From an uncultured Acidobacterium sp. (lineage in GTDB: Bacteria > Acidobacteriota > Vicinamibacteria > Vicinamibacterales > UBA2999): a DNA stretch of 64,000 bases. The stretch lies in assembly GCA_964350785.1 (NCBI GenBank), contig CAYGMD010000002.1:215-64214 (forward strand). Direction: 5' to 3'. Shown here one piece after another: positions 4,206 to 62,237 of this stretch; the first letter of the stretch is position 1; each line of letters opens with the position of its first letter. The translations under genes and the position numbers were made by a program. The notes beneath the pieces were generated by a model. It worked only from the letters and a program-made list of their open reading frames with translations. It searched no databases and was not told where the DNA came from.

Positions 4206-5474
<1,269 letters not shown>

Positions 5475-5478
<4 letters not shown>

Positions 5479-21625: not shown

Positions 21626-21626
21626 C

Positions 21627-23626: not shown

Positions 23627-24637
23627 ATGCCCACCGTGCTCGAATCGATCAACCAGGGCCTGCACGGTGCGATGGCCGCGGATTCGCGGGTGGTCGTGCT
23701 CGGTGAAGACATCCTTGACCCTTACGGCGGCGCGTTCAAGGTGACCAGGGGACTGTCGTCGGCCTATCCCGATCGTGTCTTCACGACGCCGATCTCCGAG
23801 GCGGCGATTGTCGGCCTGGCCTCGGGCCTGGCGCTGCGCGGGATGCGGCCGATTGCCGAGATCATGTTCGGCGACTTCCTGTTTCTCGCCGGTGATCAGC
23901 TCGCCAATCACGCGGCCAAGTTCCAGTGGATGTACAACGACCAGGTCCGCGTGCCGATGGTGGTGCGGGCGCCGATGGGCGCGCGGCGCGGCTACGGGCC
24001 CACGCACAGCCAGTCGCTCGAGAAGCACTTCATGGGCGTCCCCGGCCTGTGGGTGGTGGCGGCGCACATCCTCGGCGAGCCGGGCCGCCTGCTGCGGCAG
24101 GCCGTCGAGTGGGACGCGCCGGTGGTCTTCATCGAGAGCAAGACCTGCTATGGCCGCGCCCTCGTCGCGGCAGTCCCGGGCATGACGGCTACCGTCATTG
24201 CGGATGAGGCCTCGCCCTTTCCCACGCTGGTGCTCCGTCACGATCGCAGCGACGCCGCCGATGGCTTGCTGTGGTGTTACGGCGGAATGACGCCGCATTG
24301 CCTCGAGGCGGTGCAGCACTTGAAGGAGGTCGAGGGCCTGCACCTCGATCTCGCGGTGGTCAGCCAGTTGTCGCCGGTGCCGGCCTCACACCTCGCGCGC
24401 ATCGTCGCCGACGGCGAGACGACGCTGTTTGTCTACGCGGAAGAGGCGAGTGCTGAGCACGGGTGGTCCGCGGAGATCCTCGCGCAGGTGCAGCAGTGCG
24501 TGAGCGCGTCCGGGCGACCGGGGCGTCACCTCCGCATCGGCGGCGCGCATACGCCGATTCCGAGCAGTCGCGTCCTCGAGATGGACGTTGTGCCCGCCGC
24601 GCGCGACATCATCGCGCGCGTCCTGGAGTGTTTCTGA
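23627..24637 (+). CDS. E1 component, beta subunit (transketolase-like pyrimidine-binding and C-terminal domains)
   Basis: VVVLGEDILDPYGGAFKVTRGL, TPISEAAIVGLASGLALRGMRPIAEIMFGDF and the VVRAPMGARRGYGPTHSQS motif. Start codon directly abuts the alpha-subunit stop. Confidence 0.9.
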   Translation: MPTVLESINQGLHGAMAADSRVVVLGEDILDPYGGAFKVTRGLSSAYPDRVFTTPISEAAIVGLASGLALRGMRPIAEIMFGDFLFLAGDQLANHAAKFQWMYNDQVRVPMVVRAPMGARRGYGPTHSQSLEKHFMGVPGLWVVAAHILGEPGRLLRQAVEWDAPVVFIESKTCYGRALVAAVPGMTATVIADEASPFPTLVLRHDRSDAADGLLWCYGGMTPHCLEAVQHLKEVEGLHLDLAVVSQLSPVPASHLARIVADGETTLFVYAEEASAEHGWSAEILAQVQQCVSASGRPGRHLRIGGAHTPIPSSRVLEMDVVPAARDIIARVLECF

Positions 24638-25590
24638 TTAGCCGCCGCCATCTCATCTTCGCCGCGCAAGCCGTGGTCACCACGGTGCTGCTGGTGCTGC
24701 TGTTCCGCCGGTTCGACTGGGCGCGGTTTGCCGAAGTGTTGCAGCAGATGCCGGCCTGGTTCTACGCCGGCTCGCTCGTGGTGCTGGCGCTCGGGCAGGC
24801 GCTCTACGCCTACCGATGGCGTGTGGTGCTGGCGGGCATCGGCGTCGACGTGCCGTTCGGCGAAGTGCTGCGCCAGTATTTCATCGGCATCTTCTTCGCC
24901 AACCTGATGCCGACGGCGGTCGGCGGCGACGCGGCGAAGGTCTATTACCTCGGCCGGCGCTCGGGATTCGTGCAGATAACCGCCTCGGTCATCCTCGACC
25001 GGCTGCTGGGCTTCGTCTGGCTGGCGGTGATTGGGGCGGCGCTGGCGTGGGCGGTGGGTGGGGATGCGCCGGTGCTGGTCCTGAACCGCCGGTTGCTGAC
25101 GCTGTTTGCCGCGGGATTCGGGGTGGCGCTGCTGGTCGCCTGGCTGGTGCCGGTCGAGCGCGTCCTGCCACGCCTGGTGCCCGCGCGATGGAGCTCGTGG
25201 ACCTCCCGGGTCAGCGAGTTCGTGCTGCTGGTGCGCGAGGGCGTGTGCCGGCCGGCGACGTTCTTCACTGCCGGCGCCATTGTCGGCGCCTACGCCTGGC
25301 TCATCGCCATGGTGTACCAGCAGTACTTTGCCGTGAGCGGCCTTCCCGCGCTGGCCCTCCTGCCGGTGCTGCTGGCGATCGTCAGCATGTCGATCTTCGT
25401 GAACGTGCCGATCACGGTCGGCGGCATCGGCTTGCGGGAGCAACTCCACGTGCTGCTGTTCACCGCGTTTGGCGTGCCCAAGGAAGTGGCCGTGACGATC
25501 TCACTGATATTGTTCTCGCAGTCGTTGTTGTTGAGCCTGATCGGCGGCGGCCTGTGGCTCAGGATTCGGCCGACGGTGGTGGCGGCATGA
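24628..25590 (+). CDS. UPF0104 / LPG-synthase-TM (flippase-like) membrane protein
   Basis: About 8 hydrophobic segments. FDWARFAEVLQQM...YAYRWRVVL and FFANLMPTAVGGDAAKVYYL are motifs typical of this family. Start is uncertain (GTG 24628). Confidence 0.6.
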   Translation: MFLISRRHLIFAAQAVVTTVLLVLLFRRFDWARFAEVLQQMPAWFYAGSLVVLALGQALYAYRWRVVLAGIGVDVPFGEVLRQYFIGIFFANLMPTAVGGDAAKVYYLGRRSGFVQITASVILDRLLGFVWLAVIGAALAWAVGGDAPVLVLNRRLLTLFAAGFGVALLVAWLVPVERVLPRLVPARWSSWTSRVSEFVLLVREGVCRPATFFTAGAIVGAYAWLIAMVYQQYFAVSGLPALALLPVLLAIVSMSIFVNVPITVGGIGLREQLHVLLFTAFGVPKEVAVTISLILFSQSLLLSLIGGGLWLRIRPTVVAA

Positions 25591-36067: not shown

Positions 36068-36763
36068 GTGACACTCGGCATCATGCAGCCGTACTTTCTC
36101 CCGTACATCGGCTACTGGCAGTTGCTGGCGGCCGTCGATCGGTTCGTGGTCTACGACAACATTCAGTACACGAAGAAGGGCTGGATCAACCGCAACCGCT
36201 TCCTCCGCAGCGGCGCGGACGCGCCTTTCACCTTGCCGCTCAAAAAAGGGTCGGATTTCATGGATATCAGGGAGCGCTCGCTGGCGGACGACTTCAACCC
36301 GGCGACGTTGTTGAACCCATTCCGCCAGGCATACCGCAAGGCGCCGTTCTTTGACGCGGTCTTTCCGACGATCGAGTCGATCGTGACCGCGGCCCAGCGC
36401 AACCTGTTCGAGTACCTGCTTAACAGCCTGGTGGTCACCGCTGGCTATCTCGACATCAAGACACCCATTATCGTGTCGTCCACGGTGCCGATCGACCACG
36501 GCCTGAAGGCCGGCGAGAAGGTGCTTGCGCTGTGCGGTGCCCTCGGCGCCAACCGCTACCTCAACACCGTTGGCGGCCGGGCCCTGTATGCGGCCGACAC
36601 CTTCGCCGCGGCCGGTGTCGAACTCAAGTTCATCCAGGCCCGTCCCGTCACCTATGCGCAGTTCGGCCAGCCGTTTGTGCCCGCGCTGTCGATCCTGGAT
36701 GTCATGATGTTCAATTCTCCAGACGCCGTCAGGCGCATGCTCGGGGAGTACGACCTGCTGTGA
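36068..36763 (+). CDS. WbqC-like family protein, copy 1
   Basis: LGIMQPYFLPYIGYWQLLAAVDRFVVYDNIQYTKKGWINRNR is the typical WbqC-family N-terminus. Confidence 0.75.
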   Translation: MTLGIMQPYFLPYIGYWQLLAAVDRFVVYDNIQYTKKGWINRNRFLRSGADAPFTLPLKKGSDFMDIRERSLADDFNPATLLNPFRQAYRKAPFFDAVFPTIESIVTAAQRNLFEYLLNSLVVTAGYLDIKTPIIVSSTVPIDHGLKAGEKVLALCGALGANRYLNTVGGRALYAADTFAAAGVELKFIQARPVTYAQFGQPFVPALSILDVMMFNSPDAVRRMLGEYDLL

Positions 36764-37896
36764 CGATCAAGCCGTTCGCCGAACCTATTTATGTGACCCG
36801 GCCGCTTTTGCCGCCGCTCGAGGCTGTGCACGCGCGCTTGGCGGAGATCTGGGAGGCCCGCTGGCTGACCAACGACGGCCCGCAACACGTACGGCTCACC
36901 CGGGCGATCGCCGACTACCTCGCGGTGCCCCAGGTGTCGCTGTTCAACAACGGCACGATCGCCCTGCTCGCCGCCGTGCGCGCGCTCGGCATGCGCGGTG
37001 AGGTCATCACCACGCCATTCACGTTCCCCGCCACTCCTCACGCCATCAGTTGGAGCGGGGCGACCCCGGTGTTCTGCGACATCGATCCCGAGACGATGAC
37101 GATCGATCCAGCGAAGATCGAGGAGTTGATCACCCCGCGGACGACAGGCATCCTCGCGGTCCACGTGTACGGCATCCCGTGCGACGTCGGCGCCCTGCAG
37201 GCCATTGCCAACCGCCGCGGCCTGCGAGTGGTCTACGATGCGGCGCACGCCTTTGGCACGAAGATCAACGGCGTCGGCATCGGCAACTTCGGCGATGCGT
37301 CCATGTTCAGCTTTCACGCCACCAAGCTGTTTCACTCCGCGGAGGGCGGGGCCCTGACCACGCCCAAGGCCGACTACAAGGCGGCCTTCGACCACCTCAA
37401 GAACTTTGGCATCCTGAACCAGGAAGCGGTTGACGTGGTAGGAATCAACGGCAAGATGAATGAGTTGCAGGCGGCGCTGGGCCTCGCCGTGCTCGACTGC
37501 GTGGCCGACGAGGTCAGGCGCCGCCAGGCCATCATCGCCCGCTACCGGGAACGGCTGGGCGGCGTCGGCGGCCTGACCCTGATGCCCGAGCCGGCCGGTG
37601 TCGAGAGCAGCTGCCAGTATTTCGTGGTCCGGATCGACCGCGCTCAATTCGGGGCCTCGCGCGATCAGGTCTTCGAGACGCTGAAGGAATTCAACGTGCT
37701 GGCCCGGAAATATTTCTTTCCCCTGTGCACGGACTACGCGTGCTACAGCGACCTGCCCTCCGCGCGTCCCGGGCGCCTGCCGGTGGCTCACGCCATCGTC
37801 GACCAGGTGCTGTGTCTGCCGTTGTACGGCACGCTGCCGCTCGATGCCGTCGACACGATCTGCGATATCGTGCAAGGCGTTCAGACCACGGCATGA
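36760..37896 (+). CDS. DegT/DnrJ/EryC1/StrS-family PLP sugar aminotransferase, copy 2
   Basis: GTG start overlapping the upstream TGA. GEVITTPFTFPAT and FSFHATKLFHSAEGG (PLP lysine). Confidence 0.9.
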   Translation: MTIKPFAEPIYVTRPLLPPLEAVHARLAEIWEARWLTNDGPQHVRLTRAIADYLAVPQVSLFNNGTIALLAAVRALGMRGEVITTPFTFPATPHAISWSGATPVFCDIDPETMTIDPAKIEELITPRTTGILAVHVYGIPCDVGALQAIANRRGLRVVYDAAHAFGTKINGVGIGNFGDASMFSFHATKLFHSAEGGALTTPKADYKAAFDHLKNFGILNQEAVDVVGINGKMNELQAALGLAVLDCVADEVRRRQAIIARYRERLGGVGGLTLMPEPAGVESSCQYFVVRIDRAQFGASRDQVFETLKEFNVLARKYFFPLCTDYACYSDLPSARPGRLPVAHAIVDQVLCLPLYGTLPLDAVDTICDIVQGVQTTA

Positions 37897-38822
37897 CCGC
37901 CACCAAGATCATCTCGTTCGTGATTCCCGTCTATCGCAACGAACGGGCGATCAGCCTGACCTACCAGAAGATCAAGGGGGCTCTCGCGAGCGACCTGTCC
38001 GCCTACGACTACGAGTTCGTGTTCGTGGACGATGGCTCGGATGACGGTTCGCTGCCGGAGTTGTTGCGGTTGCGCGAGGCGGACCCGAAAGTGCGGATCA
38101 TTTCGTTCACGCGAAACTTCGGCCAGATGGCGGCGATCCTGGCCGGGCTCAAGGGCGCTACCGGCGACGTGATTCTGCACTTGTCGGCCGACCTGCAGGA
38201 TCCGGTCGAGCTGATCCCGCGGATGGTGCGCGACTACGAGGCGGGCTCCGAGCTGGTGATCGGCCACCGCGCCGAGCGCGAGGATCAGTGGACCTCCCGC
38301 ATCACCTCGCGCGTGTTTTATCGCATCATCCGCATGTCGTTTCCGCAGATGCCCGCCGGCGGGTTCGACTACGTGCTGATGGCGCGGCGCGTGGTGGACT
38401 CCTTCAACAGCATCGAAGTGCGTAACCGTTTCTTTCAGGGCGACCTGCTCTGGATGGGCTACAAGACGACCTTTATCCCGTATACGCGGGCGAAGCGGAC
38501 CATCGGCCGTTCGCAGTACACGTTCGCCAAGCGCCTCAAGAATTCACTCGATGCCATCCTGGACTCGTCGTACTTGCCGATTCGCTTCATCAGTGTCGCC
38601 GGTGCGGTGACGGCCATGGCAGGGTTCCTGTACGCCGTAAACATTGCTTATACCTATTTCCGACACGGCACGCCCTTCACCGGCTGGGCACCGATCATGA
38701 TCCTGCTGCTTGGCATTGGCGGCGTCCTGATGCTTATGCTTGGCATCATCGGCGAGTACGTCTGGCGCATCTATGATGAGGTCAAGAAGAAGCCGAACTA
38801 TGTGATTCGGGAGAAGTATTAA
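37893..38822 (+). CDS. GT2 polyprenyl-phosphate sugar synthase-like glycosyltransferase (GtrB/ArnC/DPM1 type)
   Basis: ISFVIPVYRNE, FVDDGSDDGS, SADLQDP (DxD-like). Two C-terminal TM helices end in IIGEYVWRIYDEVKKKPNYVI, which is characteristic of this subgroup. Confidence 0.85.
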   Translation: MTATKIISFVIPVYRNERAISLTYQKIKGALASDLSAYDYEFVFVDDGSDDGSLPELLRLREADPKVRIISFTRNFGQMAAILAGLKGATGDVILHLSADLQDPVELIPRMVRDYEAGSELVIGHRAEREDQWTSRITSRVFYRIIRMSFPQMPAGGFDYVLMARRVVDSFNSIEVRNRFFQGDLLWMGYKTTFIPYTRAKRTIGRSQYTFAKRLKNSLDAILDSSYLPIRFISVAGAVTAMAGFLYAVNIAYTYFRHGTPFTGWAPIMILLLGIGGVLMLMLGIIGEYVWRIYDEVKKKPNYVIREKY

Positions 38823-38823
38823 C

Positions 38824-39663
38824 GTGAGCGACCGCACCTATCAGGAAATCGAGGGCATTCGCTGCTACGCCCCAGCGCTCGCGCTGGACTGCGTCGACTA
38901 TCCGAGTTCCGGATTCGACGTCACCGCCGAGGTGGAGGCCCGGAGTTTCTGGTGCCGCACCCGCAATCGCGTGCTGACGCAGGTCTTCCGGCGGTTTACC
39001 GATCGCAACGCAACGCTGGACGTCCTTGAGGTCGGGTGTGGCATCGGTGGTGTGATCGCCGCATTGCGGAAGTTTCCCAATCTGCGGCTCACGGGCTCTG
39101 AGATATATCTGCAGGGCCTGCGATACGCTCGGACGAAGATGCCCGACGTGAACTTTATCCAGCTCGACGCAACCGACATTCCCTTTCAGGCTGCCTACGA
39201 CGTGATTGGAGCATTCGACGTGCTCGAGCACATTCCGGATGACGAGAAGGCGATGAGCGAGATCGCTCACGCGTTGCGCCCTGGTGGACTCTTCATTGTG
39301 ACCGTGCCGCAGTATCCATGGCTCTGGAGCACGCTCGACGAGTTAGTAAACCATAAACGCCGATACCGAAAGAAAGAGCTCGTTGAGAAGCTTGATCGGG
39401 CCGGTTTTAAGGTCATCTATTTGACGTCGTTCATCACTCTGCTACTTCCTGCCATGGTCCTGTCGCGGGTCTTCGATCGCGCTCAGCGCCGTTCGACCGA
39501 TCCAGCTGCAGACTTCACCTCACGCGTGGCGCCTGGGGCGTTGGTAAACACGATTTGCGACTGGCTCATGCGCGTGGATGAAGCCGTGCTCAAGGTCGGC
39601 CTGACCTTGCCTGTCGGTGGCTCACTCCTAGCCGTGGCGCGTCCCCACCAGTCCCAACGGTGA
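38824..39663 (+). CDS. Class I SAM-dependent methyltransferase (compositionally atypical)
   Basis: VLEVGCGIGGV, YDVIGAFDVLEHIPDD, GGLFIVTVP. GC is visibly lower than in the flanks. Confidence 0.8.
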   Translation: MSDRTYQEIEGIRCYAPALALDCVDYPSSGFDVTAEVEARSFWCRTRNRVLTQVFRRFTDRNATLDVLEVGCGIGGVIAALRKFPNLRLTGSEIYLQGLRYARTKMPDVNFIQLDATDIPFQAAYDVIGAFDVLEHIPDDEKAMSEIAHALRPGGLFIVTVPQYPWLWSTLDELVNHKRRYRKKELVEKLDRAGFKVIYLTSFITLLLPAMVLSRVFDRAQRRSTDPAADFTSRVAPGALVNTICDWLMRVDEAVLKVGLTLPVGGSLLAVARPHQSQR

Positions 39664-41660
39664 ATTCTTCGCCAAAGCCCGCCAAAGACCTTCCCGCTTC
39701 GTCGGGCCGTCGGACGCTCGCAATCGATCTTGCGATTGTGGCGTTCCTGCTGGTCGGCTCGGGGGTGTGGGCGACCACTTACTGGAACGCCTGGGTCGCT
39801 CGCGGCGGCACACCGGAATTCTACCAGTCATATTTCGAGCCGGCGGTGATGGTGGCGTGCGGCAAGGGATTCGTCGTGGCCCAGCCAGCCCCACCGGCTG
39901 CGCTTACGGCCTTTCTCCAGCGACACACCGACACCTTCTCTTGTAGCGACCTGCCTGAGGGCTTGGCGGTGGGCCAGTCCGGGATGTTCCAGGGCGCCTG
40001 GATCTATCTCGAGATGATGGTTGGCTGGGCGTGGTGGGTGCTCGGCATCTCGTGGAGCGGGATGGGGCCGCTGTTTGGCCTGCTGTTCGGAACCTCCATC
40101 GCCCTCGCGTACCGCATCTTCCGCCTTGGCATGGGGCGTCCCCTCGCGGTCATCGGTTCGCTCGCCGTGACAGTTTCGGCGGCGCACTTGATGAACCTGC
40201 CGAACCTTCGCGACTACGCGAAGGCCCCCTTTACGCTGGCGCTGATCCTGATTCTAGGACTGCTGGTCACACTGCCGACAGCGCGAAAGCGCGTGTTGTG
40301 GCTCTCGGCCTTGTTCGGCGCCGTGCTTGGCGTCGGCTACGGGTTCCGAACCGACTTCCTGGCGACCCTGCCAGTTCTGCCCATCACCTTGCTCCTCTTT
40401 CTCGAGGGCGGTGTGATGAAGCGGTGGGCGCTCAAGGCGGCTGCCACTGCGGTCTTCATTGCCACGTTCGTCATCGTGAGCTGGCCGGCCCTGACGGCCG
40501 TGTATACCAGGGGTGGCTGCCAGTGGCATGTCGCGATGCTCGGCCTGCAGGTCCCGTTCGACGCGCCGCTGCACATCGGCCAGGCGCCGTACGACTTCGG
40601 CTATGCGTATTCCGATGGCTACATCGCGTGGACCGTGCTGGGATACGCCCAGCGGACCCACCCAGACGTCGCAACGCTGGAGTTCTGCTCGCACGAGTAC
40701 GACATGCACAGCGGCGCCTTCCTGCGCGACGTGGCGACCACGTTCCCCGCGGACCTGATCGCCCGCGCATACGGATCCGTCATTCAGATCGCGGACTTGC
40801 CGTTCCTGTGGTGGGCGGCGCCGTCGCCCGGATGGGCGCCGTCCTTTTACGAGGCGCGGGCCGCGTTCCTGCGGCCGAAGATGGGGTCGGGCGCCGCTAT
40901 CGTCGCGGTTGCGCTGCTTCTGTCCGCCACGGTCAGCCTGCGGCTTGGGCTGTTCCTGTTGTTCTTCCTGGCGTATTTTGGGGGCTATCCCGCCATCCAG
41001 TTTCAAACCCGCCATCACTTCCACCTCGAGTTCATCACCTGGTGGGCTGCCGGCTTCGTCGTTCATTCAGTGGTGGCCGCGGCATGGGCTCTTCGGCGCG
41101 GTGGCATGCCGGAACGGCGAGTCATCCAGCAGGCTGTCGCGCGCTCGGCTGCGTTTGCAGCCATCGCTGCGGCGCTTGTGTTTGGGGGCCTCAACGCTGC
41201 TCGTTGGTATCAGCAAGGGCGCGCCACCGAGTTGTTACGCGCGTATCTCGATGCGCCGGCAACGCCGATTGCGTTGCCCGAAGCGACGCTGCCGGCCCAG
41301 TCAGGCCGGCAGTGGCCCGAGTTCATCCGGGTCGAGATCAACCAAGCCGAATGCGGGCCGGCGCCGTCGGTCACGTTTCGATACCGCACGACGCCGGCGG
41401 ATGGTGACCTCTCGCGGACATTTACTCTTACCGGCAACCCGACGGCGGGCCTGACGCGCGTGTTCCTGCCGGTGTTCGAGCTGTTCGATCGGCTGGAGTT
41501 CTCCGATTCTCGGCCGGGGTGCGTCGTGGGCGCCCACGCCGTCTCTGAACTGAATCGCTTTCCGTTGCTGCTGGGCGCGGTCTTGCCGCCGGGATGGGAG
41601 TCGCTGCCGCTCCATCAGCGGCTCAGGGACTGGGAAGCCACCACGCCGGTCGTGAAGTGA
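39660..41660 (+). CDS. Large polytopic membrane protein, unassigned family, paralogue P1 (666 aa)
   Basis: Multiple TM segments plus a C-terminal soluble domain. Shares FYQSYFEPAVMVACGKGF, SWSGM, LRDYAKAPF, GYGFRTD, GGCQWH, YPAIQFQTRHHFHLEF with the CDSs at 41675, 55154 and 63226. Confidence 0.7.
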   Translation: MNSSPKPAKDLPASSGRRTLAIDLAIVAFLLVGSGVWATTYWNAWVARGGTPEFYQSYFEPAVMVACGKGFVVAQPAPPAALTAFLQRHTDTFSCSDLPEGLAVGQSGMFQGAWIYLEMMVGWAWWVLGISWSGMGPLFGLLFGTSIALAYRIFRLGMGRPLAVIGSLAVTVSAAHLMNLPNLRDYAKAPFTLALILILGLLVTLPTARKRVLWLSALFGAVLGVGYGFRTDFLATLPVLPITLLLFLEGGVMKRWALKAAATAVFIATFVIVSWPALTAVYTRGGCQWHVAMLGLQVPFDAPLHIGQAPYDFGYAYSDGYIAWTVLGYAQRTHPDVATLEFCSHEYDMHSGAFLRDVATTFPADLIARAYGSVIQIADLPFLWWAAPSPGWAPSFYEARAAFLRPKMGSGAAIVAVALLLSATVSLRLGLFLLFFLAYFGGYPAIQFQTRHHFHLEFITWWAAGFVVHSVVAAAWALRRGGMPERRVIQQAVARSAAFAAIAAALVFGGLNAARWYQQGRATELLRAYLDAPATPIALPEATLPAQSGRQWPEFIRVEINQAECGPAPSVTFRYRTTPADGDLSRTFTLTGNPTAGLTRVFLPVFELFDRLEFSDSRPGCVVGAHAVSELNRFPLLLGAVLPPGWESLPLHQRLRDWEATTPVVK

Positions 41661-41674
41661 CAGCCGGACTTTTG

Positions 41675-43723
41675 ATGACCGTTGAGCAGGACGCCGCGGC
41701 CCGCCGTCTCAAACGCCGAGGCGTCGAGGCGGCGATCGTGATCGCGGTGTTGCTGGCGTCAGGCGTGTGGGCCACACAGTTCTGGAAGACCTGGACGTCG
41801 CAAGGCGGCCAGCCGGAGTTCTACCAGATCTATTTCGAGCCGGCTGTGATGATCGCGTGCGGCAAGGGGTTCGTGATATCGGAGCAACAGCCGCAGGCAC
41901 TCGAAGACTTCCTGTGGCGTCGGCGCGACAGCCTGGCCTGCAGCGAACTGCCGCCGGACCTCAAGCTCGGCGAGCGCGGCTTGTACCAGGAAGCGTGGAC
42001 ATACCTGCAGTACACCGTGGGATGGTCCTGGCGGGTTCTCGGCATTTCGTGGAGCGCGATGGCGCCGTTGTTCGGCGTCTTCTTCGCGACGGTCACCGGG
42101 CTCGCCTACGGCATCTTCCGCATTGGCATGGCACGGCCGCTGGCGGTGATCTGCTCCCTTGGCATGGTCACGTCGTCGCTCCAACTGCTCAACCTGCCGC
42201 ATCTTCGCGACTACTCCAAGGCGCCCTTCACACTGGCTCTGGTCCTGATTCTTGGGTGGATGGTTACCCGGCCGGTGCGCCGCTCAACGGTGTTGCTGCT
42301 GGCCGCGGCCTATGGCGCGGTGCTTGGGCTGGGCTATGGCTTCCGGACGGACTTGCTGATCAACCTGCCGGTGATGGCGATCGTGCTGTTCGGGTTCCTC
42401 GAAGGTGGCATTTCGAAGAACCTGGTGCTAAAAGCGGCGGCGACCGCATTGTTCGTAGGGGCCTTCGTCGCGGTGAGCTGGCCGATCACCTCCGCGGTCT
42501 ACAAGAAGGGCGGTTGCCAGTGGCACGTGGCGCTGCTTGGCCTGCAGTCACCGTTCGACGCGCGACTGCGACTGACGCCGGCGCCGTACGAGTACGGCTA
42601 CGCGTACGCCGACGGCTATGTCATACGCGGGGTGCAGGGCTTTGCGCACCGCATTGACCCGGCCGCCGTGATTCCGCAGTACTGCTCTCACGAGTACGAC
42701 GTGCAGAGCGGGCGCCTGTTGGCGTCGATCGTGTCGACGTTCCCCGGCGATTTCGTCACTCGGGCGTACGCGTCGACGCTCCAGATCGTGGAGCTGCCTT
42801 TCTCGAAATTGGTACCCGCGGCCAGAGACTGGGCGGCGGGAGTGTTCGCCGTGCGATCGACACTGTTGCAGGCACGCCACTCCTGGGGCGCGTTGCTCGC
42901 TGCGATGGCCGTTCTGCTGGCGGCGGCCGCCAGCTTCAGGCGAGGCCTGTTCCTCTTGTTCTTCCTCGCGTACTTTGGTGGCTATCCGGCAGTGCAGTTC
43001 CAGGAGCGGCACTTCTTTCATCTCGAGTTCATCGGATGGTGGGCGATCGGCTTTGTTGTGCAGCACGGTGTAGCCGGGGCGCGCGGCATCGTCAGCGGCC
43101 AACGCGAGGCGTGGCCGATGGTCCGGGGGTTGGCGGCGTGTGCCTTAGCCATCGCCGTGGTTTCGATCGCGGTGTTCGGCAGCCTGGTGGCAGTCGCGCG
43201 CTGGTATCAGGGCCGTCAGGTGCGTCAACTGCTCGCCGCGTACGTGGCCGCCCCCAAGACCCCCGTGGCCAATCCGTCCGAGCCCCTCGCTGGCATCGCG
43301 CCCGAGGACTGGCCGCAGTTTATCGAGGTGGGCCTCGATGAGGCGGCATGCGGTCCGCGGCCTTCTGTCACATTCACGTACGACCGTTCCAGTCCCGACA
43401 GTGACTTCACCCGCACGGTGACCATCGAACGCTCCTCAACTGTCGCCGGGCCGACGCGCGTCTTGCTTCCCGTGTATGAGCATTTCACCGGCGTCGCAAT
43501 TTCTGATTCGTTGCCGGGCTGCTTGATCGGTGTCTCGCGATTTACCGACCTCCCGGCTCAGCGGCTACTGCTGGGCGTCGTGCTGCCGCCGGATTGGGAA
43601 TCCCTGCCGATGTACCAGCGGTTGGCGCGATGGGAGGGCGGCTCGCCGCTCGCCTCGTCGGCGTCGCCGGTTGTGTCATTGTTGACGGTGATGCCGCCAT
43701 CGGCGGTTCAGTTGTCACGATGA
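41675..43723 (+). CDS. Large polytopic membrane protein, unassigned family, paralogue P2 (682 aa)
   Basis: Colinear with P1 along its whole length: FYQIYFEPAVMIACGKGF, SWSAM, LRDYSKAPF, GYGFRTD, GGCQWH, YPAVQFQERHFFHLEF. I prefer the ATG at 41675 to the ORF-track start at 41594. Confidence 0.7.
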   Translation: MTVEQDAAARRLKRRGVEAAIVIAVLLASGVWATQFWKTWTSQGGQPEFYQIYFEPAVMIACGKGFVISEQQPQALEDFLWRRRDSLACSELPPDLKLGERGLYQEAWTYLQYTVGWSWRVLGISWSAMAPLFGVFFATVTGLAYGIFRIGMARPLAVICSLGMVTSSLQLLNLPHLRDYSKAPFTLALVLILGWMVTRPVRRSTVLLLAAAYGAVLGLGYGFRTDLLINLPVMAIVLFGFLEGGISKNLVLKAAATALFVGAFVAVSWPITSAVYKKGGCQWHVALLGLQSPFDARLRLTPAPYEYGYAYADGYVIRGVQGFAHRIDPAAVIPQYCSHEYDVQSGRLLASIVSTFPGDFVTRAYASTLQIVELPFSKLVPAARDWAAGVFAVRSTLLQARHSWGALLAAMAVLLAAAASFRRGLFLLFFLAYFGGYPAVQFQERHFFHLEFIGWWAIGFVVQHGVAGARGIVSGQREAWPMVRGLAACALAIAVVSIAVFGSLVAVARWYQGRQVRQLLAAYVAAPKTPVANPSEPLAGIAPEDWPQFIEVGLDEAACGPRPSVTFTYDRSSPDSDFTRTVTIERSSTVAGPTRVLLPVYEHFTGVAISDSLPGCLIGVSRFTDLPAQRLLLGVVLPPDWESLPMYQRLARWEGGSPLASSASPVVSLLTVMPPSAVQLSR

Positions 43724-44903: not shown

Positions 44904-45851
44904 ATGTCAGCCAGTCGGGTCGTGGTGCTTGGGTTCGGGCGGCTGGCGCTCGCGGCCCTCGACACGCTCGAACGTCTTGGGGTCACGCCCGTCGCCGTCG
45001 TCGTGCCCGGCATCCGCAGTGGCGCCGATGTCGAGATGGTCGCCGCCCGGGCTCGCGAGAAGTCGCTGAAACTGCTCGTGCAGCCGCGCCGAAAGGACCT
45101 GGCGCCCTTTCTTGAAACCATCAAGGCCCTGAGCCCAGACTTGATGTTGGTGTGGTCGTACCCGATGTTGCTGCCGCCGGAATTGACGTCGCTTGCCGCC
45201 AACGGAGCCTTCAACATCCACAGCGGCAGGTTGCCCGAGTATCGAGGTGGCCACGTGATGATGTGGGCACTAATCAATGGCGAGAGCGAGAGCGCCGCCA
45301 CGCTGCATCGGGTCGATGCGGGGATCGATACCGGCCCGGTCGTGGCCGAAGAACGGTTTCCGATCGAATGGGACGACGACATCGCGTCGTTGCAGGGGAA
45401 GCTGGCGAAGGCCGGCACAGCGTTGCTGACCAAGTGGTGGCCCGCGCTCGCCGACGGGACTGCGCCGCAGGCACCGCAGGACGAGTCGCGCGCGCGGTAC
45501 TACCGGATGCGCACCCCAGCCGACGGGTTGATCGACTGGGCGCAGTCGAACGTCCAGATCTACAACCTGGTGCGGGCGCTGGTGGCACCGTGGCCAGGAG
45601 CATTCACCACCGTCGGGACTACGCGCTTGGTGCTGCGGCAAGTTGAACCCGTCACGGCAATGTCACCGGCGGCGCCCGGCACCGTCGTGCGATGCGACAC
45701 GCACGAAGTGAGAATTGCCGCCGGCCAGGGAGACGTGAAGATCGTTGCGAGCGAAATTGACGGTCGCCCTGCGGCGGCGGCGGACTTGGCGCGCGCCGGG
45801 CTGGCCATCGGGGCTCGACTTCCAGCCGGACCGCCGAAGGCGCTGGGTTAA
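44904..45851 (+). CDS. Formyltransferase (Fmt/ArnA-N-like; likely sugar N-formyltransferase)
   Basis: FNIHSGRLPEYRGGH (catalytic Asn and His) and VDAGIDTGPVV (catalytic Asp). A C-terminal Fmt-like domain is present. Confidence 0.85.
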   Translation: MSASRVVVLGFGRLALAALDTLERLGVTPVAVVVPGIRSGADVEMVAARAREKSLKLLVQPRRKDLAPFLETIKALSPDLMLVWSYPMLLPPELTSLAANGAFNIHSGRLPEYRGGHVMMWALINGESESAATLHRVDAGIDTGPVVAEERFPIEWDDDIASLQGKLAKAGTALLTKWWPALADGTAPQAPQDESRARYYRMRTPADGLIDWAQSNVQIYNLVRALVAPWPGAFTTVGTTRLVLRQVEPVTAMSPAAPGTVVRCDTHEVRIAAGQGDVKIVASEIDGRPAAAADLARAGLAIGARLPAGPPKALG

Positions 45852-53402: not shown

Positions 53403-54118
53403 CCGCCGCCGTGGCCGACACCCCGAAGACCCTCGTCGTGCTCCAGCCGGGGTACTTGCCGTGGCTGGGCTTTTTCGATCAAATGCGGCGCGCCGACGTC
53501 TTCGCGTACTACGACGATGTGCAGTTCAACAAGCATGGGTGGCGGAACCGCAACCGGATCAAGACGCCGTCGGGCCCCCTGTGGCTCACCGTGCCGGTGC
53601 TGCACCATGGCCAGGGCCAACCCCGGATTCTCGAGACCGTGATCGACAGCCGCTCCAACTGGCAGCGCAAGCACATCGGCTCGCTGAAGCAGTACTATGC
53701 CAAGGCCCCATATGCGACGCGCTACCTGCCTGAGCTCGAGGCGATGCTGAGCCGTCCGTGGACCCACCTGGCGGACCTGGACATCGCCGTGGCCGGCCTG
53801 ATGGCCCGGTGGCTGGAGATTCCGGTGCCGACACTGCGGACCTCGACACTTGGCATCGACGGGACGCCGTCGCAGCGGCTCATCAACCTCTGTCATCACT
53901 TCGGCGCTACTCGCTATTTGAGCGGCGATGCCGCCAGCGACTACCTTGACGTCCCCCTGTTTGCGAGCCAGGGCATCGAGGTGGTGTGGCAGAACTATCA
54001 ACACCCGGTCTACCCTCAGCAACACGGTGAGTTCGTGCCGTACCTGTCGGCCATTGACCTGCTTCTCAACTGCGGCGGCCAGAGCGCCGAGATTCTCAAG
54101 GGCGGACCCACGGCATGA
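53399..54118 (+). CDS. WbqC-like family protein, copy 2
   Basis: VVLQPGYLPWLGFFDQMRRADVFAYYDDVQFNKHGWRNRNR parallels the N-terminus of the CDS at 36068. ATGA overlap with the upstream gene. Confidence 0.75.
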   Translation: MTAAVADTPKTLVVLQPGYLPWLGFFDQMRRADVFAYYDDVQFNKHGWRNRNRIKTPSGPLWLTVPVLHHGQGQPRILETVIDSRSNWQRKHIGSLKQYYAKAPYATRYLPELEAMLSRPWTHLADLDIAVAGLMARWLEIPVPTLRTSTLGIDGTPSQRLINLCHHFGATRYLSGDAASDYLDVPLFASQGIEVVWQNYQHPVYPQQHGEFVPYLSAIDLLLNCGGQSAEILKGGPTA

Positions 54119-55152
54119 AGACAATCCTCGTCACGGGTGGCGCCGGCTTCATCGGCAGCAACTTCGTGCACCACATCTTCAACAAGTACCCGGACTATCG
54201 CATCCTGGTGCTCGACCTGCTGACCTATGCCGGGAGTGTCGACAACCTGCCGACCGATTTCCAGGACGCGCACACCAGCGGGCGGATCGAGTTCTGGTAC
54301 GGCGACGTGCGCAATGCGTCGCTGGTGGAGAACCTGATGCGGCGCGTGGACGTGGTGGTGCATTTCGCCGCCGAGACGCACGTTACCCGCTCGATCTTCG
54401 ACAACTACCACTTCTTCGAAACCGACGTGCTCGGCACGCAGGTGATCTCGAACGCGGTGCTGCGCTGCGCCGATCGCATCGAGCGCTTCGTGCACATCTC
54501 CACTTCCGAGGTCTACGGCACCGCCGAGGCGCCGCTGATGAACGAAGAGCATCCGCTGAAGCCGCTCAGTCCCTATGCGAGCGCGAAGTGCGGCGCCGAC
54601 CGGCTGGTCTATTCCTACTGGTCCACCTACCAGCTACCCGCGGTGATCGTGCGGCCGTTCAACAACTTCGGCCCGCGCCAGCACCTCGAGAAGGCGGTGC
54701 CGCGCTTCATCACGAGCTGCCTGCTGGACGAGCCCCTGCGCCTGCACGGCCAGGGCGTGGCCCAGCGCGACTGGGTGTTCGTCGAAGACACCTGCGATGC
54801 GATCGATCGGATCGTTCACGCGCCCAGGGAGGCCGTCGTCGGCGAGGTCATCAACATCGGCACCGATCAGAGCCTCAGCGTGGCCGAGGTGGCGCACCAT
54901 ATCGTGAAGTTGATGGGCAAGCCCGAGTCATTGATCACGTACGTCGGCGAGAGGCCGGGCCAAGTGTTCCGGCACACTGCCGATGCGGCCAAGGCGCGGC
55001 GAATCCTGGGCTGGCAGCCCAGCGTGACGTTCGAGCAAGGCTTGCAGAAGACCATCGACTGGTACCGCACGCATCGCAACGTGTGGGAGAAGCAACTCTG
55101 GATGCGCGAGATTCCGATCGTGACCGGGTCGGGGAAGGCCGAGCTCCATTAG
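54115..55152 (+). CDS. rfbB: dTDP-glucose 4,6-dehydratase-like extended SDR
   Basis: ILVTGGAGFIGSNFVHHI, LDLLTYAGSVDNL, the YASAKCGADRLV catalytic YxxxK, and RPFNNFGPRQHLEKAVPRFI. Confidence 0.8.
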   Translation: MKTILVTGGAGFIGSNFVHHIFNKYPDYRILVLDLLTYAGSVDNLPTDFQDAHTSGRIEFWYGDVRNASLVENLMRRVDVVVHFAAETHVTRSIFDNYHFFETDVLGTQVISNAVLRCADRIERFVHISTSEVYGTAEAPLMNEEHPLKPLSPYASAKCGADRLVYSYWSTYQLPAVIVRPFNNFGPRQHLEKAVPRFITSCLLDEPLRLHGQGVAQRDWVFVEDTCDAIDRIVHAPREAVVGEVINIGTDQSLSVAEVAHHIVKLMGKPESLITYVGERPGQVFRHTADAAKARRILGWQPSVTFEQGLQKTIDWYRTHRNVWEKQLWMREIPIVTGSGKAELH

Positions 55153-58993: not shown

Positions 58994-59810
58994 CCCAGTG
59001 ACCGCGGCCTCGGTGCTCGAGGGCCTGGGCGTACCGCGCGGCGGCATCCTCTACGTGCAGTCGTCGGTTGACTGGATGCAGCGCGCCGGCCTGCGTGCTC
59101 CCGAGGTGCTCGCGACCCTGCTCGACTGGACCGGTCAGGCCGGCACCCTGGTGATGCCGAGCTACCCGTTCCACTCCACGCACCAGGAGTACCTGTTAAC
59201 AGCTCCCACGTTCGACGTGCGCCGCACGCCAGCCGCGATCGGCCTGATGCCGGAGATGTTCCGCCGCACGGCCGGAGTGGTGCGCAGCCTCGATCCCGAT
59301 TTCAGCGTGTGCGCTCGCGGTGCGGAGGCTGAGGTCATCGCCGGCAGCGTACCGGCGGCGCCGGATCCCTTCGGCCCGGACTCGAGCTACCAGCGGATGC
59401 TCGGACTCGGCACCACGCTCGTGGGCCTGGGTGTGAGCCTGAACACCAATTCCTTCATTCATGCCATCGACTCGCGCGCCGGCGCCGGCTATCCGGCCCC
59501 AGTCTATGACGAACGGGTGTACGCTACGACGGTGATCGACCGGCAAGGAGCGTCTCGCGTCGTCCGGCGCCTGTGCCTCCGCCCCCAATTTCAGCAACTC
59601 ACCAGGCCGGCGGCCATTGGCGAGGCGATGGGCCCGGCCGCCGAGGCGTTTGCGACCATCGAGATCGCCGGTGCGCGATTCTTCAAGTGGGACCTCAACG
59701 CCTGGTCGGCTTGGTGCGCGTCGCACGTCGCCGCTCAAGCCACGCGAGGGGAGTGGCCCTGCTGGCTCGCGCGCCTCGGTAGTGCGTTGCCGCCGGCGCA
59801 GCCCTCATGA
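58983..59810 (+). CDS. AAC(3)-fold (Antibiotic_NAT family) N-acetyltransferase-like protein
   Basis: Internal ATG (MSDNPVT). GGILYVQSSVDWM, GTLVMPSYPF and NSFIHAIDS resemble my recollection of aminoglycoside 3-N-acetyltransferase-family motifs. Confidence 0.65.
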   Translation: MSDNPVTAASVLEGLGVPRGGILYVQSSVDWMQRAGLRAPEVLATLLDWTGQAGTLVMPSYPFHSTHQEYLLTAPTFDVRRTPAAIGLMPEMFRRTAGVVRSLDPDFSVCARGAEAEVIAGSVPAAPDPFGPDSSYQRMLGLGTTLVGLGVSLNTNSFIHAIDSRAGAGYPAPVYDERVYATTVIDRQGASRVVRRLCLRPQFQQLTRPAAIGEAMGPAAEAFATIEIAGARFFKWDLNAWSAWCASHVAAQATRGEWPCWLARLGSALPPAQPS

Positions 59811-60607
59811 GCGCGCCGTCGGCCGTCGCCACGTTTCGTCCCAGCCTCTCCATGCTGGGCTGGGCGCTCAACGAGGAAGAGAACGTCGCCGAGTACGTGC
59901 GACGGGCCGAGGCCTTCCTGTCGAGCGTGTCAGACGACTACGAGCTCATCCTGTTCGACGATGGCAGCAGCGACCGGACGTGGTCGATCATGAAGGAGTT
60001 GGCGGCGACGCGGCCGTGGCTGCGGCCGATCCAGAACGATCGCAACCGTGGGCCAGGCTACTGCTACCGGGCGGGCATCGGCGCCGCGACCAAGGCGTAC
60101 TTCATGGCCCAGACCGTGGATTGGGCCTACGACATCGATGCCTTCAAGCCGCACTTCGGGGAACTGGAGCGATACGACATCCTGCAAGGGGTGCGGCCGG
60201 GCGAGTTCTCGATCCGCACGCTCCGCAACCGCAGCGACAGCTTCTACAAGGGCGTCGTCTCGTTGACCAATTACACGCTGATTCGCGTGCTGTTCCGATT
60301 GCCGTTCGACGACTTCCAGAACGTCACGATTTGCCCCACTCGCCTGGCGCAGTCGCTGCGCCTGGAGTCGGAGGGATCGTTTACGAACCCGGAAGTGATG
60401 ATGAAACTGTACTGGGGCGGCGCGTCGTTCCTGCAGGTGCCGGTCCGGTTCCAGAAGCGCGGCCGCGGCAAGGGCACCGGGACGCGAGTCGGTGCCATCG
60501 CGCGTTCGATCGTGGAAATCCTGACTTGTTGGCTCCGCTCGGTGGTGTGGCGACGCCATCCCCGTCGAGGGAACGGACGCGTCGAGTCGGTGCCCCGCCA
60601 AGAATGA
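59807..60607 (+). CDS. GT2-family glycosyltransferase (soluble, DPM1-like)
   Basis: LSMLGWALNEEENV, ELILFDDGSSDRT and NDRNRGPGY. No C-terminal TM helices. Confidence 0.8.
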   Translation: MSAPSAVATFRPSLSMLGWALNEEENVAEYVRRAEAFLSSVSDDYELILFDDGSSDRTWSIMKELAATRPWLRPIQNDRNRGPGYCYRAGIGAATKAYFMAQTVDWAYDIDAFKPHFGELERYDILQGVRPGEFSIRTLRNRSDSFYKGVVSLTNYTLIRVLFRLPFDDFQNVTICPTRLAQSLRLESEGSFTNPEVMMKLYWGGASFLQVPVRFQKRGRGKGTGTRVGAIARSIVEILTCWLRSVVWRRHPRRGNGRVESVPRQE

Positions 60608-62118: not shown

Positions 62119-62237
62119 GCGATGGTGCCGTTCCGGCGGCGCCCCCGGCCGGGCGCGTGGCTGCCGCGCCTGGCGCCGGCCAACCTCGACCCCTACGTGA
62201 ACCTTCACGACATCATGTACATTGTCGCGGAGCGCCA

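Follow-up and report, generated by a model that had tools for sequence, protein, structure and literature searches.

A previously unclassified family of predicted GT-C-fold membrane proteins, putative periplasmic glycosyltransferases, in a polysaccharide gene cluster of an uncultured acidobacterium

Four large polytopic membrane proteins, named P1 to P4, are encoded in a 64,000-nucleotide stretch of DNA from an uncultured Acidobacterium sp. (the whole stretch is called the window here). The analysis supports that they constitute a sequence family which had so far gone unclassified and which belongs to the known GT-C kind, and we consider it likely that they are GT-C-fold membrane glycosyltransferases moving lipid-linked sugars onto an exported polysaccharide outside the cytoplasm. 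We also infer, as set out below, an enzymatic activity, a donor sugar, an acceptor and roles for individual residues of P1–P4. Many surface glycans of bacteria owe their final structure to GT-C enzymes, which are hard to spot from sequence. An earlier note on this DNA had interpreted the proteins as GT-C-type periplasmic glycosyltransferases or polymerases; the GT-C-like predicted fold, the predicted periplasmic position of the motifs, the ArnC/PgfS-like GT2 genes nearby and the recurrence of GT2 genes in other loci supported that interpretation.

The four paralogues and their sequence family

P1 (39660..41660, + strand, 666 aa) is the founding copy of the family, and its GTG start overlaps the TGA of the upstream methyltransferase gene as GTGA. 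The tandem paralogue P2 (41675..43723, + strand, 682 aa) begins with an ATG 14 nt past the P1 stop; an alternative in-frame ATG is found at 41594. P3 (55154..57688, + strand, 844 aa) is a long-form paralogue that has about 170 additional residues at the C-terminus and corresponds to the family's size class of 820-870 aa. The fourth paralogue, P4 (63226..>64000, + strand), starts 2 nt after the gene GT2b, and its N-terminal 258 aa are encoded before the window ends. The amino acid sequences of P1 and P2 share 53% identity over 645 aa (BLAST, E=0), those of P1 and P3 35-36% (5e-96), and P4 shares 39-45% identity with the other three over about 240 aa (1e-33 to 1e-50). Judged by these comparisons, P1–P4 are true paralogues, 35-53% identical, and tblastn searches together with a family HMM located exactly these four copies in the 64-kb window. 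The coordinates, lengths and paralogy given in the earlier note were thus borne out, and all the motifs that it listed were found in the translations, such as ISWS(G/A)M, GYGFRTD, GGCQWHVA and NLPxLRDYxKAPFTLAL. The YFEPAVM motif was also present, but its Glu is kept in close relatives only and the wider family mostly has Gly at this position. Three other membrane proteins (50008-51534, ~60643-62118 and 15900-17294), which lack a Pfam or NCBIfam match, were considered as distant paralogues and rejected, as the family HMM was negative for them.

The family comprises about 1,960 clusters at 50% identity. All its genome matches are uncultured MAGs, from Acidobacteriota (mainly Vicinamibacterales), Hydrogenedentota, Nitrospirota, Nitrospinota and Planctomycetota. 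Comparison of P1–P4 with Pfam and NCBIfam at E<=1 returned no family, noise aside, neither sequence nor profile searches of the PDB gave any match to the family, and a precomputed Pfam domain was found in none of the 120 homologues among those listed. The proposal of a new family holds within the collections against which newness was judged, namely Pfam-A 2025, NCBIfam 2026 and the PDB sequences. When 64 members were scanned at E<=10, the top recurrent Pfam match was PMT_2 (five members, best E 4e-4, sub-threshold), followed by ThrE and EptA_B_N (two members each) and by single weak matches to ALG3 and Dpy19. None of the curated GT-C families (PMT, PMT_2, STT3, ALG3, Dpy19, YfhO, GT87 and others in Pfam, and those of NCBIfam) matched above the gathering threshold. 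A tblastn search of the window with E. coli ArnT gave no match, and alignment of the family profile with an ArnT alignment (hhalign) yielded a probability of 0.2, a comparison of little power because the shallow ArnT alignment held only sequences at least 76% identical (76-100%).

Predicted fold, topology and conserved residues

The AlphaFold2 model of P1 had a pLDDT of 91.8 and a pTM of 0.90. When the full-length model was compared with the PDB using Foldseek, ALG3, STT3, Pmt4, ArnT, AftA, AglB and PglB were retrieved with probabilities of 0.9-1.0; DPY19 appeared further down the same list (0.54) and EmbC (7bvh) matched at 0.2. The TM-scores of these full-length comparisons were 0.25-0.35 when normalised to the query, with a best target-normalised value of 0.44. 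The Foldseek E-values were weak, from 7e-3 at best to 1, none reaching 1e-3. The full-length search found the right families with low scores, and modelling residues 1-300 of P1 separately (pLDDT 84) raised the TM-scores to about 0.5. With this module the query-normalised values were 0.54 for PglB (3rce), 0.52 for STT3A (6s7o), 0.51 for ArnT (5f15) and 0.51 for ALG3 (9s6r); PglB, STT3, ArnT, ALG3 and AftA as a group gave 0.45-0.54 at Foldseek probabilities of 0.9-1.0, while non-GT-C matches had TM-scores of about 0.2. The models support a resemblance in three dimensions between the N-terminal transmembrane (TM) module of P1 and solved GT-C enzymes. The suggestion of a GT-C-type periplasmic glycosyltransferase agrees with this outcome, in which the predicted structure retrieved GT-C enzymes almost exclusively at high probability.

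P1 is predicted to have 11 TM helices and, on the periplasmic side, a large first loop, a loop of 120 aa following TM7 and a beta-sandwich domain at the C-terminus, for which only a faint match of the CBM type was found (CBM16, E 0.8). In the AlphaFold2 secondary structure, TM1 spans residues 14-47 and is followed by a loop (48-132) that includes helices at 56-66, 80-86 and 110-128. Positive-inside analysis and hydropathy support an N-terminus on the inside and the 11 TM helices: the N-terminus and the short loops 152-160, 206-212, 248-259, 426-428 and 479-489 are net positive, while the motif-bearing loops are neutral or acidic, and so are the 120-aa loop and the C-terminal domain. This predicted layout agrees with that of GT-C enzymes, which have 7-13 TM helices, a cytoplasmic N-terminus and, following TM1, a sizeable extracytoplasmic loop with short helices. 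The conserved Cys pairs C67/C95 and C565/C621 lie in predicted periplasmic parts, as does C287/C343, although only close relatives keep this last pair. Charge distribution and conserved Cys pairs agree in supporting a periplasmic location of all the conserved motifs, the topology prediction that the earlier note had asked for.

GT-C enzymes canonically carry a conserved catalytic Asp or Glu where TM1 ends or where the first extracytoplasmic loop begins. No invariant Asp or Glu was found in the family within residues 43-110. Among 96 members, about 20% have E60, 74% have an acidic residue (Asp or Glu) at the position of D91, and 82 have some Asp or Glu within positions 50-62. The residues that are invariant on the predicted periplasmic face are R184-D185-x-x-K188, R230-x-D232, D319, D365 and R451-H452; the invariant acids D185, D232, D319 and D365 belong to later periplasmic loops. 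The invariant Arg, Lys and His residues may bind the donor phosphate, the invariant Asp residues may act in catalysis, and the predicted C-terminal beta-sandwich probably binds the acceptor glycan. These invariant residues offer a test set for the question of how a GT-C enzyme could function when the usual Asp of loop 1 is missing.

Genomic context, proposed pathway and alternative explanations

The gene GT2a (37893..38822, + strand) encodes an ArnC/PgfS/GtrB-type polyprenyl-phosphate glycosyltransferase (PF00535) with two C-terminal TM helices at 228-291. It shares 30% identity with E. coli ArnC over residues 7-312 (E 9e-41), and its best NCBIfam models, both over the full length, are PgfS (222 bits) and ArnC (154 bits). 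Between GT2a and P1 lies a class I SAM methyltransferase gene (38824..39663, + strand) that is translationally coupled to P1; both neighbours were found where they had been claimed. A second GtrB/PgfS-type gene, GT2b (62157..63224, + strand), lies directly upstream of P4, and its product has two TM helices at the C-terminus and resembles ArnC and PgfS over its full length, with the PgfS model scoring best. By identity and NCBIfam models, the reading of the neighbouring GT2 as a polyprenyl-phosphate sugar synthase fits GT2a and GT2b. GT2c (59807..60607, + strand) is a short GT2 without TM helices, and the unclassified polytopic membrane protein at ~60643-62118 is encoded downstream of it.

Upstream of GT2a are genes for a WbqC-family protein (36068..36763, + strand) and a DegT/DesI-like sugar 4-aminotransferase (36760..37896, + strand; DesI model, 317 bits; the ORF may begin as far upstream as 36532). 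A second WbqC-family copy lies at 53378-54118; the literature gave no functional information on WbqC. A sugar N-formyltransferase (44904..45851, + strand) resembles the N-terminal domain of ArnA (37% identity to ArnA 68-280), and a dTDP-glucose 4,6-dehydratase-like gene (54115..55152, + strand; TIGR01181, 334 bits, cut-off 365) directly precedes P3. A probable Wzm permease (3366-4205, + strand), proposed because it has 4-5 TM helices and is encoded ahead of Wzt, and a Wzt ATPase with a Wzt_C glycan-binding domain (4165-5478, + strand) belong with five GT4 genes to the same co-directional gene array, upstream of the P genes. As annotated from their sequences, Wzm and Wzt point to a polysaccharide pathway that depends on an ABC transporter. 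A single flippase candidate was recognised in the window, an LPG_synthase_TM/"flippase-like domain" membrane protein (24463..25590, + strand; TIGR00374, 46 bits, cut-off 43), 14 kb upstream of P1. Neighbour scans and tblastn recognised no GtrA-, ArnE/F- or Wzx-type flippase adjoining the P genes, and no ArnD or ArnE/F homologue was found in the window. A promoter and terminator scan of the 36-46 kb region found nothing above chance; the region is consistent with one long operon.

Of 51 related genome loci, 23 have a GT2 gene at most about 5 kb away from the family gene, and 17 have one at most 1 kb away. These GT2-linked loci include Nitrospirota, Nitrospinaceae, Planctomycetota, Bryobacterales and Thermoanaerobaculia. 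The expected co-occurrence with GT2 genes recurs across phyla, with the Hydrogenedentota members lacking it: no GT2 lay within 8 kb in the nine Hydrogenedentota loci, nor in seven further loci whose flanks were complete, and the neighbours in two scanned Hydrogenedentota loci were unrelated to glycans. The gene order MT-WbqC-DegT-GT2-(GDSL)-MT-P-...-rSAM-formyltransferase is kept in other MAGs, and relatives carry three or more family copies in tandem, with 3-5 per locus in Vicinamibacterales. In two distant loci, small ORFs between GT2 and P were considered as GtrA-like flippases and proved to encode a hexapeptide acyltransferase and soluble proteins.

From the adjacent ArnC/PgfS-type GT2 genes, in the window and in the 23 loci, we infer that a lipid-phosphate-linked sugar is the putative donor. 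The following pathway is proposed. Cytoplasmic enzymes of the cluster (the dTDP-glucose 4,6-dehydratase-like protein, DesI/ArnB-like aminotransferases, ArnA-like formyltransferases, WbqC and methyltransferases) would make nucleotide-activated amino-deoxy sugars. Since the dehydratase and aminotransferase resemble dTDP-6-deoxyhexose enzymes, the sugar is probably a 4-amino-4,6-dideoxyhexose and not Ara4N. GT2a, GT2b and possibly GT2c would load it onto undecaprenyl phosphate, and the lipid-linked monosaccharide would then be flipped to the periplasm. Each P paralogue would take the sugar from the polyprenyl phosphate and add it at a position, or to an acceptor, of its own on a polysaccharide built in the cytoplasm by the five upstream GT4 enzymes and exported by Wzm/Wzt.

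A GT-C fold would also suit proteins that glycosylate other proteins (S-layer, pilins or Ser/Thr-rich envelope proteins), as PMT, PglB, YfhO/PgfM1 and PglL-type systems do. GT2a and GT2b score best against PgfS, the synthase of a protein O-glycosylation pathway (PMC12041528), STT3, PglB and PMT are among the top structural matches, and Hydrogenedentota members are found outside polysaccharide clusters. However, the P genes are embedded in a Wzm/Wzt and GT4 polysaccharide cluster in the window and in syntenic relatives, the C-terminal beta-sandwich has only its faint CBM16 match, and no acceptor-protein gene is evident; we regard a protein acceptor as unlikely. Polymerases or ligases of the Wzy, WaaL or ECA-polymerase kind, which would use undecaprenyl-diphosphate-linked oligosaccharides instead of monosaccharides, are suggested by the polytopic layout of the P proteins, by their large periplasmic loop and by their invariant Arg/His (R451-H452), reminiscent of WaaL-type phosphate-binding residues. 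WaaL and Wzy were otherwise unrecognised in the window, but as the pathway is ABC-transporter dependent, a Wzy is needless. Moreover, no WaaL, Wzy, RodA or FtsW structure was among the best 50 matches listed for each of two Foldseek searches, nor did Pfam or NCBIfam give a sequence match, and a WaaL or Wzy identity was rejected. The confident matches were instead GT-C enzymes acting on lipid-linked sugar donors. ArnT, PMT, ALG3 and AftA use polyprenyl-phosphate monosaccharides, and STT3/PglB use diphosphate-linked oligosaccharides. The pairing of the P genes with ArnC/GtrB-type monophosphate-sugar synthases also speaks against a polymerase or ligase, which we hold to be improbable.

Least probable is that the P proteins are transporters or flippases (of a lipid-linked sugar or a polymer) or structural membrane proteins. 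This would accommodate the lack of a curated family match for P1–P4, the absence of another flippase beside the GT2 genes and the few MFS and ABC transporter entries in the Foldseek list of full-length P1. Those entries, however, had probabilities of 0.04-0.28 and TM-scores of about 0.1, on which a transporter identity was rejected. In addition, the invariant polar residues all cluster in predicted periplasmic loops and not inside TM helices, and tandem multiple copies that include a soluble periplasmic domain typify glycosyltransferases whose acceptor specificities differ, not flippases.

Recognising the family, whose members abound in uncultured phyla of soil and sediment and most of all in Vicinamibacterales, would make it possible to annotate thousands of "hypothetical proteins". 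It would also suggest that acidobacteria extensively modify their polysaccharides, which matter for soil aggregation and carbon, in the periplasm.

Comparison with known glycosylation systems

The ArnT (GT83) pathway resembles the window in its enzymes, as ArnB-like aminotransferases, an ArnC-like GT2 and a formyltransferase like the ArnA N-terminal domain are encoded near the P genes, and the modelled N-terminal module of P1 superposes on 5f15 (TM-score 0.51). The shared logic would be that cytoplasmic enzymes make an amino sugar and formylate it, that it is put on undecaprenyl phosphate, and that a GT-C enzyme transfers it in the periplasm. In contrast, the P proteins have no sequence similarity to ArnT, and the window lacks ArnD and ArnE/F. 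ArnT has 13 TM helices, whereas P1 has 11 predicted ones plus a large extra loop and the beta-sandwich domain, and the acceptor of ArnT is lipid A while that of the P proteins is likely an ABC-exported polysaccharide.

In three-component systems, a polyprenyl-phosphate sugar synthase and a serotype-specific GT-C enzyme modify the finished polymer outside the cytoplasm, and this combination has precedents on ABC-exported and Wzy-made O antigens (PMC11127046). The Gtr-type systems (GtrA/GtrB/GtrC of Salmonella and Shigella, gml of Klebsiella, and ORF12-15 of Citrobacter youngae, GT136) resemble the P loci in pairing a synthase with a GT-C gene. They differ in having one GT-C protein per system, as opposed to up to four paralogues in the window, and the P genes have no adjoining GtrA or MATE flippase gene; Pfam and NCBIfam revealed no relationship between the Gtr-type GT-C proteins and the P proteins. 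GT136 ORF12 carries an extra periplasmic carbohydrate-binding domain, and GT136 was founded in 2024 because it was dissimilar to existing GT families, an example of how new GT-C families are still founded one by one (PMC11127046). In the Pgf system of Streptococcus mutans, one synthase, PgfS, serves two paralogous YfhO-type GT-C enzymes, PgfM1 and PgfM2 (PMC12041528). GT2a and GT2b match the PgfS model best over their full length, but the scores are far below its equivalog cut-off (222 bits for GT2a versus 500), no P protein matches the YfhO family of Pfam, and Pgf glycosylates proteins in a Gram-positive bacterium.

The mycobacterial Emb/Aft enzymes (GT53, GT85, GT87 and others) have no sequence similarity to the P proteins, EmbC being matched structurally at low probability only, and their donor pathway is PRPP-based whereas that of the window is GT2-based. 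AftA (8if8) is among the structural matches of P1, and the Emb/Aft enzymes are likewise several paralogous GT-C proteins with periplasmic carbohydrate-binding domains, which work one after another on a single glycan and draw on a polyprenyl-phosphate monosaccharide as donor, as proposed for the P paralogues. A bolder reading, which we consider doubtful, is that the family is a new GT-C branch in which catalysis relies on the invariant RDYxK, GFRxD and RH of later loops without a fixed loop-1 acid. Its tandem arrays and up to three synthases would then build a whole branched or N-formyl/acyl-amino-dideoxyhexose-rich glycan domain outside the cytoplasm, grafted on an ABC-exported backbone, as an acidobacterial counterpart of mycobacterial arabinan assembly. 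The family extends a known principle and overturns none.

Paralogy, distribution and conservation of the P family

The four paralogous genes under study, all on the plus strand, are P1 (39660-41660, 666 aa), P2 (41675-43723, 682 aa), P3 (55154-57688, 844 aa) and P4 (63226->64000), a partial ORF running past the end of the window. The earlier note had described four ORFs of one membrane protein family. The ORFs are present, every motif it quoted was found in the P proteins, and BLAST showed the paralogy: P1 and P2 share 53% identity over 645 aa, P1 and P3 35-36% (E 5e-96), and P4 39-45% with the other P proteins. Exactly four copies were detected in the window by tblastn and a family HMM. The GTG start of P1 overlaps the stop codon of the preceding methyltransferase gene (GTGA), and 14 nt separate the P1 stop from the P2 ATG. 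No promoter-like or terminator-like site above chance was found between 36 and 46 kb. Nearly all genes of the 64-kb window lie on the plus strand with high GC3, and together they look like a single very long operon-like array.

Scans of P1-P4 against Pfam-A and NCBIfam at E<=1 gave no match beyond noise, and sequence and profile searches against PDB chains gave no match. A word-indexed search gave over 455 homologues; among the matches listed, 0 of 120 carried a precomputed Pfam domain, and the few with names came from Vicinamibacterales/Acidobacteriota MAGs as "hypothetical protein". When 1.84 billion representatives were searched exhaustively with a profile, 1,961 clusters (50% identity) were recovered at E<=1e-3 and 1,220 at E<=1e-30. 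By length the proteins form two classes, one of 650-700 aa (P1 and P2 type) and one of 820-870 aa (P3 type). From GTDB species genomes 51 P-family loci were recovered, every one from a MAG, belonging to Acidobacteriota (Vicinamibacterales, Thermoanaerobaculia, Bryobacterales), Hydrogenedentota, Nitrospirota, Nitrospinaceae and Planctomycetota, plus single bins labelled Bacillota and Chloroflexia. None came from a cultured organism, a result that does not prove absence from such organisms because the scan was built on two peptide patterns. In L040 and L051 the family matches are split into many short overlapping ORFs, which probably reflect frameshift-rich long-read MAG assemblies and not true pseudogene arrays.

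Conservation was measured across 96 diverse members (P1 numbering). The polar residues K188, R230, D232, D319, D365 and R451 are invariant, as is Q518 in the stalk helix; R155, R184, D185 and H452 are 97-99% conserved, C67 and C95 92-97%, and C565 and C621 about 80%. The Glu of YFEPAVM is kept in the close P1/P2 clade only, the position being mostly Gly elsewhere. The canonical GT-C loop-1 position carries no fixed acid; the invariant acids and bases are found in later loops, predicted to be periplasmic.

Predicted fold and membrane topology

The AlphaFold2 model of P1, obtained with a 50-sequence alignment, had a mean pLDDT of 91.8 and a pTM of 0.90. It consists of a long TM1, a first loop of short helices and strands, a TM bundle, a helical loop of 120 residues (285-405), a further four TM helices, a long stalk helix and a C-terminal beta-sandwich (534-660), the last with a faint CBM16 match (E 0.8). 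Foldseek comparison of the full-length model with the PDB gave no match at E<=1e-3, and nearly all matches at probability 0.9-1.0 were GT-C glycosyltransferases: ALG3 (9s6r, E 7e-3), STT3 (8agc), Pmt4 (9i5k), ArnT (5f15/5ezm), AftA (8if8), AglB and PglB. DPY19 stood lower in the list (0.54). A transporter-type fold was rejected, the MFS and ABC transporter matches having probabilities <0.3 and TM-scores of about 0.1. Since GT-C families have only the N-terminal module in common, residues 1-300 were re-modelled separately (pLDDT 84). Query-normalised TM-scores increased to 0.54 for PglB (3rce), 0.52 for STT3A, 0.51 for both ArnT and ALG3 and 0.45 for AftA, compared with values near 0.2 for unrelated helical proteins. 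In single scans of 64 members against Pfam (E<=10), PMT_2 recurred most often (5/64, best 4e-4), ThrE and EptA_B_N appeared in two members each, and ALG3 and Dpy19 once each. The hhalign probability between the P-family profile and an ArnT alignment was 0.2, a negative result of little weight because the ArnT alignment comprised nothing more divergent than sequences 76-100% identical.

Topology was assessed from segment charge averaged across 64 members. The N-terminus and the short loops 152-160, 206-212, 248-259, 426-428 and 479-489 are net positive and almost without acidic residues; the first loop, the 120-aa loop, the RDYxKAPF, GFRxD and RHxFHLEF loops and the C-terminal domain are neutral or net acidic. 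This pattern is consistent with 11 TM helices and an N-terminus on the inner side; the Trp/Tyr-rich helix 110-128 would then be interfacial and belong to the first periplasmic loop. The conserved Cys pairs of the first loop (C67/C95) and the C-terminal domain (C565/C621) are in line with both regions being exposed to the periplasm, and a third (C287/C343, in the big loop), kept in close relatives only, agrees with the same side. From the charge averages and Cys pairs, all conserved motifs are predicted to face the periplasm; the cytoplasmic placement that the earlier note named as evidence against its glycosyltransferase reading was not seen.

The polysaccharide cluster and linkage to GT2 genes

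Judged by its genes, the window is an ABC-transporter-dependent polysaccharide cluster. It includes a probable Wzm (3366-4205), recognised by TM helices and position only, a Wzt with a Wzt_C domain (4165-5478), five GT4 genes (8392-19853), one carbamoyltransferase and several methyltransferases. Three AsnB-type glutamine amidotransferases (6899-8782, 29811-31808 and 51534-53402, the third with 456 bits on the XrtA/PEP-CTERM "eps_aminotran_1" model) suggest amidation of uronic acids or a modification of that sort. ORF 24816-27335 contains a second Wzt-like ATPase with Wzt_C; in this ORF, ABC_tran begins only at residue 303 and Wzt_C at residue 684. The 5' part of this ORF is overlapped in another frame by the gene of a TIGR00374/LPG_synthase_TM protein (24463-25590), the sole flippase-like protein recognised in the window; no dedicated small flippase gene was found there. 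The true start of the second Wzt is probably at about 25.6 kb; the cluster would then encode two Wzt ATPases, each carrying a glycan-binding domain. A complete 2-oxoacid dehydrogenase-like set (E2 lipoyl acyltransferase, 21615-22754; E1 alpha, 22691-23626; E1 beta, 23627-24637) is flanked by an oxidoreductase and the flippase-like gene. Such a set is unusual for a glycan locus, and it may provide an acyl or branched-chain group with which sugars are modified.

The block containing the P genes runs GH130-like, BNR-like, methyltransferase (MT), WbqC, DegT, GT2a, MT, P1, P2; then radical SAM/SPASM, formyltransferase, C5-epimerase-like, Formyl_trans_N, GDSL; then unclassified membrane protein, AsnB, WbqC, dehydratase, P3; and finally M20 deacylase, AAC(3)-like N-acetyltransferase, the short TM-less GT2c (59807-60607), unclassified membrane protein, GT2b, P4. 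GT2a (37893-38822) has two C-terminal TM helices, 30% identity to E. coli ArnC (residues 7-312, E 9e-41) and full-length best NCBIfam matches to PgfS (222 bits) and ArnC (154 bits), a pattern repeated by GT2b (62157-63224). The aminotransferase DegT1 (36760-37896) resembles DesI (317 bits), the formyltransferase the N-terminal domain of ArnA (37% identity), and the gene 5' of P3 dTDP-glucose 4,6-dehydratase (334 bits, below the cut-off of 365). ArnD, ArnT and ArnE/F homologues were not found in the window.

Several neighbours deserve mention in their own right. The GH130-like beta-propeller and BNR_4-like ORFs (33125-35307, overlapping by about 130 nt) always head the conserved block MT-WbqC-DegT-GT2 and may be GH130-fold glycosyltransferases or phosphorylases, not hydrolases. 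Both WbqC-family (PF08889) genes (36068-36763 and 53378-54118) adjoin a sugar-nucleotide enzyme; no functional information on WbqC was found in the literature. The radical SAM/SPASM enzyme (43746-44900), directly 3' of P1-P2 and 86-96% conserved in syntenic loci, has C-methylation, epimerisation or dehydration as possible roles. Directly 3' of P3, the ArgE/DapE-type M20 deacylase and AAC(3)-like N-acetyltransferase (57695-59810; pair kept in L021 and L024, M20 also in L025) may form an amino-sugar de-acylation/re-acylation step, functionally analogous to ArnD. The polytopic membrane proteins at 15900-17294, 50008-51534 and ~60643-62118 have no Pfam/NCBIfam match and are unrelated to the P family. 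The 508-aa one keeps its syntenic position after the formyltransferase in other MAGs, and the ~491-aa one, which always comes after GT2c, may be another unclassified lipid-sugar-dependent transferase or flippase.

The block MT-WbqC-DegT-GT2-(GDSL)-MT-P-...-rSAM-formyltransferase-membrane protein-AsnB-WbqC-dehydratase-P3-like recurs in other Acidobacteriota contigs, and family members often stand in tandem, in arrays of 2-3 or more (e.g., L005, L012, L018, L040). The co-occurrence with polyprenyl-phosphate sugar synthases expected by the earlier note held in part. Scored with a locally built GT2 profile, a GT2 lies within ~5 kb of the P-family gene in 23 of the 51 loci (within 1 kb in 17), including distant members from Nitrospirota (L023), Nitrospinaceae (L029), Thermoanaerobaculia (L027) and Bryobacterales (L053), as well as L037; in Planctomycetota (L032) it is directly upstream. 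DegT, WbqC or MT genes accompany the GT2-linked gene in L027, L033, L037 and L053. However, 16 loci with full flanks lack a GT2, among them all nine from Hydrogenedentota, two of which, with scanned neighbours, show TPR, DHH, Mur ligase and sulfatase genes. Therefore, the association is frequent and cross-phylum, not universal. In L023 a 375-aa polytopic membrane protein without known family (6691-7818), and in L029 a hexapeptide acyltransferase (7444-7992), precede the P-family gene, each with a short TM-less GT2 upstream.

Proposed role and comparison with known systems

The P family is best read as a new sequence family with a GT-C fold. The GT-C-like predicted fold, the topology and the gene linkage support the periplasmic glycosyltransferase assignment of the earlier note. 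Activity, donor, acceptor and residue roles we infer; in a Gtr/Arn-like system, the P family would carry out the transfer on the periplasmic side. From the enzymes encoded nearby we propose a donor-sugar route, in which a dTDP-4-keto-6-deoxyhexose would be aminated, N-formylated or otherwise N-modified, loaded onto undecaprenyl phosphate by an ArnC-like GT2 and flipped into the periplasm. The P paralogues would then pass the sugar to the polymer exported by Wzm/Wzt, and acceptor or linkage would differ from one paralogue to the next.

The Arn pathway is a precedent for this logic of a synthase and a periplasmic transferase. Other precedents are the Gtr, gml and GT136 systems (PMC11127046) and Pgf (PMC12041528). 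Curated GT-C families have no detectable sequence relationship to the P family in Pfam, NCBIfam or PDB sequences. Unlike known GT-C families, the P family lacks the fixed loop-1 acid and has invariant acids and bases in later loops; it is predicted to have 11 TM helices, a C-terminal beta-sandwich and a large loop of helices, often occurs in multi-copy tandem arrays, and has no small dedicated flippase gene. Newness was judged against Pfam-A, NCBIfam and PDB, and the family might already carry a recently assigned CAZy number. Enzymes and systems of this kind are known, and what the P family adds is a new sequence family, which is of solid interest to glycobiology and to the annotation of uncultured phyla but brings no new principle.
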